Of a DNA stretch of 64,000 nucleotides, positions 30,525 through 30,564 are shown piece by piece. The stretch's first letter is position 1. Each line of letters opens with the position of its first letter. The DNA is from an uncultured Actinomycetes bacterium (lineage in GTDB: Bacteria; Actinomycetota; Thermoleophilia; Gaiellales; Gaiellaceae), in the NCBI GenBank assembly GCA_963696975.1, contig CAVOMI010000007.1, forward strand, positions 5,362-69,361. Reading direction: 5' to 3'. The notes under the pieces were generated by a model, which was not told the origin of the DNA, did no database searches, and saw only the letters and a list, made by a program, of their open reading frames with translations. The translations under genes were made by a program, and so were the position numbers.

Positions 30525-30564
30525 CGTCGCCGCACCGTCACCGAGACGTCACCGGATGCGTCAC
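30525..30564 (-). promoter_or_regulatory. Four phased direct hexamer repeats (GTGACG x3 then GCGACG on the minus strand) upstream of the CIS operon
   Basis: Plus-strand CGTCGC at 30525, and CGTCAC at 30536, 30547 and 30559 (spacings 11, 11, 12 nt). They lie 73-112 nt upstream of the sheath TTG, in the 131-nt divergent gap shared with grpB-like. Confidence 0.5.

Follow-up and report, generated by a model that had tools for sequence, protein, structure and literature searches.

Phased GTGACG repeats as candidate SARP boxes at three promoters of an actinobacterial contractile injection system

Background

The closest described counterpart of the arrangement reported here is the action of AfsR at the afsS promoter of S. 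coelicolor, through the afs box (structures 8hvr, 8k60 and 8jke). At that promoter at least two 11-bp direct repeats replace the -35 element, and the proximal repeat is found ~8-9 bp from a suboptimal -10 hexamer. The afsS gene is a small ORF located just 3' of afsR, and its own promoter carries the afs box. Among characterised SARPs the sequences of the repeats vary. Their placement follows a published rule, in which the direct repeats are 11 or 22 bp apart and the 3' repeat is 8 bp from the -10, with the afs box itself spanning -40 to -19 and overlapping a poor -35 (PMC10936776). The small pathway SARPs follow the same rule, both in their 11-bp direct repeats and in the distance of 8 bp between 3' repeat and -10 (PMC10936776; for a review see PMC10972967). 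ActII-ORF4, DnrI and RedD, which are cluster-situated small SARPs with several promoters per cluster, have heptameric TCGAGXX repeats.

As to the regulation of actinobacterial contractile injection systems (CIS), publications on S. coelicolor and the eCIS surveys go no further than naming candidate regulator genes. Geller et al. 2021 classified BTAD as an eCIS "shell" domain and proposed adjacent GerE or BTAD genes as eCIS regulators (PMC8213781), and a 2026 paper on S. clavuligerus described a SARP/BTAD gene near CIS genes, calling its regulatory role hypothetical. What both of these studies report is co-occurrence alone; neither defines a binding site, describes the promoters or lists targets. 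The papers on the S. coelicolor CIS describe a putative regulator, sco4263, together with bldA dependence and several promoters, and they contain no SARP and no motif. We searched the literature for GTGACG together with CIS, and for SARP or BTAD together with CIS, and found no described binding site. What is already known is thus the SARP class, its mechanism and the neighborhood association of BTAD with eCIS.

Here we present an analysis of one actinobacterial CIS cluster contained in a 64,000-nucleotide stretch of DNA, which is referred to as the window. An earlier note on this DNA had drawn attention to helically phased GTGACG repeats ahead of CIS-linked genes, and had proposed that they define a dedicated CIS regulon under the SARP gene of the same locus. 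Our analysis supported this interpretation, with the binding of the SARP to the repeats inferred from sequence. The main reading, to which we assign a probability of about 0.78, is that the GTGACG arrays are SARP boxes of the regulator encoded at 8116..8877, which would activate three CIS-linked promoters. The earlier note had also regarded such a regulon as undescribed; this is correct for the motif and the regulon, but the linkage between BTAD and eCIS genes was already present in Geller 2021 and in the S. clavuligerus paper. The new elements are the cis-element and its motif, a conserved promoter architecture, the three-promoter target set and the extension to Thermoleophilia.

Like the loci surveyed by Geller et al., the locus has a BTAD gene beside an eCIS operon and DUF4157 genes (PMC8213781), and like the S. 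coelicolor CIS it is an actinobacterial cluster with a linked putative regulator and several promoters. As in the clusters of ActII-ORF4, DnrI and RedD, the regulator is a cluster-situated small SARP, the repeats recur every 11 bp and several promoters of the cluster are involved. The order SARP, array, small ORF recalls that of afsR and afsS, the likeness being one of gene order and box position. Unlike the afs box, the repeats have a GTGACG core and are present in up to 4-5 units rather than 2, and the presumptive targets are CIS genes rather than a regulator of secondary metabolism. The repeat also differs from the TCGAGXX heptamer of the small pathway SARPs, and the genes of the cluster specify a phage-tail-like particle in place of an antibiotic pathway.

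Results

The CIS cluster and its gene context

The features of the window are listed in Table 1. Judged by its Pfam gene content the cluster is an Afp/PVC-like eCIS, with genes for sheath, tube, baseplate, hub, a Pvc16-like protein and an AAA ATPase (Pvc15-like), as well as two eCIS_core genes. The operon begins with the sheath gene and runs on the minus strand down to 10850 in the order tube, Pvc16_N, AAA ATPase, tube-like, GPD hub, Baseplate_J and DUF6519; the CIS_tube match was weak and Phage_GPD fell below the cut-off. The SARP gene was the sole regulator found in the cluster. Between it and the first DUF4157 gene is a small ORF of the "RVW" family, which is probably co-transcribed with that DUF4157 gene.

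Table 1. Features of the CIS cluster and its predicted regulatory elements (window coordinates)
Feature	Position	Strand	Basis or detail
First eCIS_core (DUF4157) gene	6437..7873	-	Pfam; ATG 4 nt past small-ORF stop
Small conserved ORF ("RVW" family), ~67-70 aa	7876..8079/8088	-	between SARP gene and first DUF4157 gene
Predicted -10, CAGCAT	8093..8088	-	9 nt past last unit of the 8119..8103 array
Array 5' of small ORF/DUF4157 unit	8119..8103	-	GTGACG 8119..8114 and 8108..8103, N5 between
Small SARP gene, BTAD domain	8116..8877	-	Pfam
Codon of SARP residue 84	~8626..8628	-	
Array 5' of second DUF4157 gene	9014..9064	+	GTGACG at 9014, 9025 and 9048; degenerate TCATCG 9059..9064
Predicted -10, TAAGTT	9074..9079	+	9 nt past degenerate unit at 9059; conserved in L081
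Second eCIS_core (DUF4157) gene	9087..10589	+	Pfam
Tube gene, gp19-type	28007..28501	-	Pfam Phage_T4_gp19
Sheath gene, first of CIS operon	28503..30452	-	Pfam Phage_sheath_1 and 1C
GC-rich hairpin 5' of sheath Shine-Dalgarno	30453..30503	-	
Predicted -10, GACACT	30514..30509	-	10 nt past last sheath-array unit
Sheath-promoter array	30564..30525	-	GTGACG-catccg-GTGACG-tctcg-GTGACG-gtgcg-GCGACG
Sheath-array units	30564..30559, 30552..30547, 30541..30536, 30530..30525	-	GTGACG, GTGACG, GTGACG, GCGACG
GrpB-family gene	30584..31138	+	Pfam; divergent from sheath gene
744-aa ORF	31267..33501	-	just past GrpB

The gap upstream of the sheath gene had been taken for the CIS promoter region. It does contain an array, but it is also divergent: the plus-strand GrpB gene begins at 30584, and 20 nt separate it from the outermost repeat. 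Adjacency of GrpB to the sheath gene is confined to L001 and L002, the two closest relatives, and the array persists elsewhere. We rejected GrpB as a target of the sheath array because the adjacency is limited to these two loci, and the gene is probably not controlled from it. Beyond GrpB, the 744-aa ORF gave no match in Pfam and NCBIfam searches; DUF1501-type genes come next, and the ORF seems to be outside the CIS cluster.

The regulator is predicted to be a complete small SARP

Pfam identified a BTAD domain in the product of 8116..8877 (E=2.5e-18; 67 bits against a cut-off of 22.1), the domain expected of the SARP family. Trans_reg_C was not detected in the protein by Pfam, even at E<=10, and in this respect it differs from the Streptomyces small SARPs, as it does in a host range that includes Thermoleophilia. 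A phmmer comparison aligned residues 23-244 with the SARP domain of AfsR (E=1.5e-5; ~23% identity). The AF2 model, built with 32 homologues and having a pLDDT of 86, places a beta-sheet, three helices and a wing in residues 23-106, followed by the helical BTA domain. The only significant Foldseek matches to this model were AfsR (8k60/8hvr; TM 0.69-0.73) and EmbR (2fez/2ff4; TM 0.74-0.75), over 240-245 columns. An N-terminal OmpR-type winged-helix domain ahead of BTAD is thus indicated by the predicted fold and not by a sequence profile. Since the modeled fold and its matches extend over the whole SARP domain, the protein is, on this prediction, a complete small SARP composed of an OmpR-type DNA-binding domain and a BTA domain. 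The assignment of this gene to the SARPs in the earlier note is therefore borne out for BTAD by Pfam and for the full SARP by the predicted fold.

Despite the fold match over the whole SARP domain, the protein departs from AfsR in being a small SARP without NOD or TPR domains and in its low sequence identity. No TTA codon was present in the SARP gene of the window, unlike the case of the bldA-dependent CIS of S. coelicolor. The family to which the protein belongs is large, with >3,000 database clusters at E<1e-10.

Three arrays of phased repeats in the window

When the sequence was re-read, the minus-strand array of four units ahead of the sheath gene was found just as it had been reported, with unit starts spaced by 12, 11 and 11 nt and the whole array 73-112 nt ahead of the sheath TTG at 30452. 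The same hexamer and phasing recur in the two further arrays that had been noted near the SARP gene: the pair at 8119..8103 on the minus strand, spaced by 11 nt, and the units at 9014..9053 on the plus strand, spaced by 11 and 23 nt. The latter array is extended by TCATCG, an in-phase but degenerate unit that is the promoter-proximal one.

The background frequency of the hexamer had been guessed at once per 3 kb per strand. This was an underestimate: GTGACG occurs 82 times on both strands of the window, or ~1 per 1.56 kb per strand, twofold commoner than supposed. The accompanying claim that phased pairs should be very rare by chance nevertheless held, as exact same-strand pairs 10-12 nt apart were observed four times against 0.16 expected (Poisson P ~2e-5), the lowest P among all hexamers in the window, and 500 third-order Markov simulations of the window gave a mean of 0.13 such pairs and a maximum of 2. 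This P is borderline within the window once corrected for 2080 hexamers. Chains of units matching GTGACG at 5/6 positions were at background level in the window, 26 against 27 expected, so the window has just three arrays and no additional sites are claimed.

Conservation of the arrays across sheath loci

A scan with the sheath protein, at one genome per species, yielded 80 loci (L001-L080). L001-L045 are actinobacterial, with sheath identities of 50-89%, and the closest among them are uncultured Actinomycetota and Thermoleophilia MAGs at 88-89%, which places the window in that group and not in Streptomyces. L046-L080 (n=35) have sheath identities of 35-48% and are mostly non-actinobacterial, with a few Actinomycetota whose sheaths are at 35-37%. 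Arrays of 2-5 G[TC]GACG units, on the sheath strand and 44-145 nt 5' of the sheath start, were found in 27/45 of the actinobacterial loci and in 0/35 of the distant ones in the same upstream zone (Fisher P = 1.2e-9); the distant actinobacterial loci L049-L051 (35-37% identity) had no array upstream. The array-bearing taxa comprise Gaiellaceae, Solirubrobacterales, Miltoncostaeaceae, Dactylosporangium, Micromonosporaceae, Frankiaceae, Yinghuangia and Streptomyces, so that footprinting of orthologous loci, which the earlier note had put forward as a check, found the repeats kept in several actinobacterial orders. The density of phased pairs was 133-fold higher in the 200 nt 5' of sheath genes than in the rest of the loci, and the unit spacing was 11 in nearly all orthologous arrays.

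Inspected by eye, the intergenic DNA around the arrays has little other similarity between loci. Arrays kept amid dissimilar spacer DNA indicate a footprint, as opposed to common ancestry of the whole spacer. In the Micromonospora and Nostocoides loci the GACG core is retained and the first bases vary (GCGACG, GAGACG, GGGACG), with some units ~22 nt apart rather than 11, again as judged by eye.

The arrays ahead of the DUF4157 units, to which the earlier note had extended its claim, also have counterparts elsewhere, in front of DUF4157 genes in the Streptomyces loci L021 and L022 and in L081. In L081, a 93%-identical relative, both SARP-proximal arrays are conserved nearly base for base; the array at 9014 is almost identical there and partly kept in L082. 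Taken together, the arrays are very probably functional promoter elements.

Promoter geometry

A scan of the sheath intergenic region (30400..30650) for sigma70-type -35/-10 promoters found no pair. GTGACG itself was rejected as a -35 element, because 20-21 nt would then separate it from the -10. What the three window arrays have in common is a predicted -10 hexamer 9-10 nt past the last unit (Table 1). A (G/C)A(N)ACT hexamer occupies the same place in L001-L004, L007-L009 and L013, and in the Thermoleophilia relatives it is followed by ~50 nt to the start codon. In 44 arrays from the genome-derived loci and the window, the offset to NANNNT was +9 in 14 and +10 in 6, with ~1 at other offsets; in 69 arrays from high-GC metagenome contigs it was +9 in 21 and +10 in 7, with ~1-2 at others. 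About 28-29 of these 69 metagenome arrays thus have a -10 at +9/+10, against ~5% expected, and 60% are without one.

As a hexamer followed by 9 nt is equivalent to a heptamer followed by 8 nt, the geometry of the arrays matches the published SARP rule. The unit spacings in the window arrays (12, 11 and 11; 11; 11 and 23 nt) agree with the 11 or 22 bp of the rule, and the 3' repeat is ~8 bp 5' of a -10, predicted from sequence, where it would take the place of the -35. The comparison with the 11-bp repeats that SARPs bind near the -35, drawn in the earlier note, can therefore be extended to the distance from the -10. The classical heptamer TCGAGXX was not found, the repeat here being (G)GTGACG. 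Since characterised SARPs differ in their repeats, this mismatch counts against identity with ActII-ORF4 or DnrI sites and not against membership in the SARP class.

With these hexamers, the sheath transcript is predicted to start near 30503..30501 and to have a 5' UTR of ~50 nt; for a start near 30502, units 3 and 4 of the sheath array would span about -39..-23. At the 8119..8103 promoter a leaderless or near-leaderless transcript is predicted from about GTG 8079, and for the second DUF4157 gene a leaderless mRNA from ATG 9087. The positions of predicted -10 hexamers 6-8 nt ahead of start codons imply leaderless transcripts for several promoters of this type. In the Micromonospora loci L025, L029, L031, L032, L035 and L037, the predicted -10 GAGAAT is separated by 6 nt from the sheath ATG.

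These data bear on the simplest alternative, namely that the repeats have no function and reflect chance or the base composition of GC-rich intergenic DNA. In its favor are the twofold higher frequency of GTGACG and the borderline within-window statistics. Against it are the conservation of the arrays across actinobacterial classes in otherwise dissimilar DNA, the 133-fold enrichment and the sharp peak in the offset to the -10, and together these effectively refute it.

The geometry is also pertinent to the sign of regulation. If the SARP bound the arrays mainly as a repressor or roadblock, the regulated genes could be GrpB, whose start is so close to the sheath array, or the SARP gene itself, as the 9014..9053 array is in the divergent region between SARP and DUF4157 genes, ~140 nt 5' of the SARP start codon. 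However, the arrays, in their orientation and in the fixed +9/+10 distance to the -10, always face the downstream CIS-linked gene; the adjacency of GrpB is limited to the two closest relatives; and the characterised SARPs are activators (PMC10936776). We consider repression quite improbable, and return to activation of the downstream genes as the preferred reading.

An RNA-level reading of the sheath 5' region was pursued and dropped. The GC-rich hairpin listed in Table 1 was no better than shuffled sequence (z = -1.1), and an Rfam scan of the sheath intergenic region gave a sub-threshold miRNA match only. By eye, a similar hairpin, gcccg-N4-cgggc, seemingly occurs in the same place in L001-L004 and L008.

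Linkage and co-variation of the SARP with the arrays

A homologue of the SARP was found within 3 kb of the sheath gene in 33/80 loci, often ending right at the array. In L081, L082, L203, L204 and L205 an array with a correctly placed -10 follows the SARP stop and precedes the small ORF; arrays in this position are sometimes degenerate, e.g. GTAACG-N5-GTGACG or TTGACG-N5-GTGACG. The small ORF, 60-70 aa in length and with a motif of roughly VLVIRVWxE...LRARIT...WL, directly follows the SARP gene in 15 loci (e.g. L081, 10790..11002; L082, 10851..11036; L203, 10807..11022), and in L018 and L020 it is just 5' of the sheath gene. An array is present in its own promoter, and some loci have a second one that overlaps the 3' end of the ORF. 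Pfam and NCBIfam searches with it gave no match, and it has no detected similarity to a known family.

To look at the repeats irrespective of genes, metagenome contigs were scanned for GTGACG-N5-GTGACG-N5-GTGACG, which returned 120 contigs, 66 high-GC and 54 low-GC. Of the high-GC contigs, 13/66 carry CIS genes, the small ORF or a member of this SARP family, and where a SARP gene is present its distance to the array is <600 nt. About 80% of the high-GC triple arrays are on contigs, mostly short ones, in which neither a SARP nor a CIS gene could be recognised. Some of these arrays are probably chance occurrences or may be binding sites of something else; others are simply on short contigs.

The residues predicted to read the DNA provide a further line of evidence. 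T88 and R92 of AfsR both contact bases (PMC10936776), and in the phmmer alignment they correspond to T84 and R88 of the window SARP. R88 is nearly invariant in the family, as is the GACG core in the repeats. Residue 84 varies, being S or T in most loci, where the repeat is GTGACG, Q in the Micromonospora loci, where it is GCGACG or GAGACG, and R in the Nostocoides-like loci, where it is GGGACG or GCGACG. This co-variation, which concerns position 2 of the repeat and involves only two or three independent clades, is suggestive of direct recognition of the repeats by the SARP.

The main reading can be challenged on the identity of the binder. Direct repeats with an 11-bp period are not peculiar to SARPs: response regulators of the OmpR/PhoB type bind them too, and they characterise the OmpR/PhoB class as a whole, so the protein cannot be named from the geometry alone. 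Conceivably a response regulator of this type encoded elsewhere, or a complex involving the "RVW" protein, occupies the arrays, and the targets of the SARP are different or additional ones. This would agree with the array-bearing loci that have no SARP within 3 kb (L001, L002 and L004-L006), with the many metagenome arrays that have no visible SARP neighbor and with the tight linkage of the small ORF to the arrays. On the other hand, no second regulator was found in the window's cluster, SARP homologues abut arrays in many unrelated loci, the 9 nt to the -10 without a -35 is a specific SARP layout, and residue 84 co-varies with the repeat. The "RVW" version has the added difficulty that the small ORF is missing from many array-bearing loci. 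Overall a different binder appears unlikely, and the SARP is the best candidate.

Discussion

The mechanism that we propose follows that of AfsR. Each 11-bp unit, approximately (G)GTGACGnnnn, would be bound by one SARP protomer through its OmpR-type winged helix, such that protomers are arranged side by side along a single face of the helix. The two promoter-proximal units, at roughly -40 to -19, would stand in for the absent -35, and the SARP would recruit RNA polymerase in the manner structurally shown for AfsR, with extra units upstream adding cooperativity. Three promoters would be targeted in this way, those of the sheath/CIS operon, of the unit formed by the small ORF and DUF4157, and of the divergently oriented second DUF4157 gene, and together they would constitute a small dedicated regulon. 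The identification of this particular SARP as the binder, its action as an activator rather than a repressor and the transcription start sites are deduced from sequence.

If the main reading is correct, studies of actinobacterial CIS gain a defined cis-element and a candidate cognate regulator, together with a predicted layout of the promoters. The element is conserved in the cultivable genera Dactylosporangium, Micromonospora, Streptomyces and Yinghuangia. The motif could serve for genome-wide prediction of CIS-linked cargo and accessory genes, and expression of the SARP could turn on silent CIS clusters. The SARP mechanism would also come to include a non-metabolic target, and would reach into Thermoleophilia, a deep-branching class.

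A wider view can be sketched, which we regard as speculative and, with all of its parts taken jointly, rather doubtful. In this scheme a large and distinct SARP subfamily would be the ancestral master switch for a single eCIS lineage of the Actinobacteria that reaches from Thermoleophilia to Streptomyces. The regulon would extend to the DUF4157 toxins, with "RVW" as an AfsS-like second-tier factor, and would take in unlinked GH25/M15 cell-wall hydrolases, SLATT and membrane proteins. The multi-unit arrays would provide a cooperative switch, of a kind that fits a release programme coupled to lysis and lethal to the producer cell. If this were true, SARPs would not be primarily "antibiotic" regulators.

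Additional observations on repeats and modules

Several features encountered during the searches are recorded here. A triple array with a correctly spaced -10 also precedes other genes in L106, L120, L171, L174, L144 and L199. The genes that follow encode a GH25 and M15 peptidoglycan hydrolase, DUF3616, secreted PKD/Big and SLATT_4 proteins, as well as two homologous multi-pass membrane proteins without a Pfam match; the calls of downstream ORFs in the metagenome contigs are crude. These genes are possible unlinked members of the regulon, with roles in lysis or as cargo or accessory proteins.

In L203, whose SARP is 58% identical, the SARP, the array and the small ORF (8788..11022) are located beside a divergent GerE-family regulator, and there is no CIS gene within 10 kb of this module. 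The module is therefore not always adjacent to a CIS cluster, or may have other targets.

In most of the low-GC (<0.6) metagenome loci, such as L100, L136, L143 and L196, and in L201, the pattern hits are plain tandem 11-mer repeats that contain GTGACG. The DNA is probably non-actinobacterial, and these repeats are unrelated to the promoter element.

Finally, the TGA stop of the window's SARP gene is embedded in the first GTGACG unit of the 8119..8103 array (8114..8119, minus strand). The SARP stop in L012 and L015 is perhaps likewise a TGA within the first GTGACG unit, as seen by eye with the frame unchecked.
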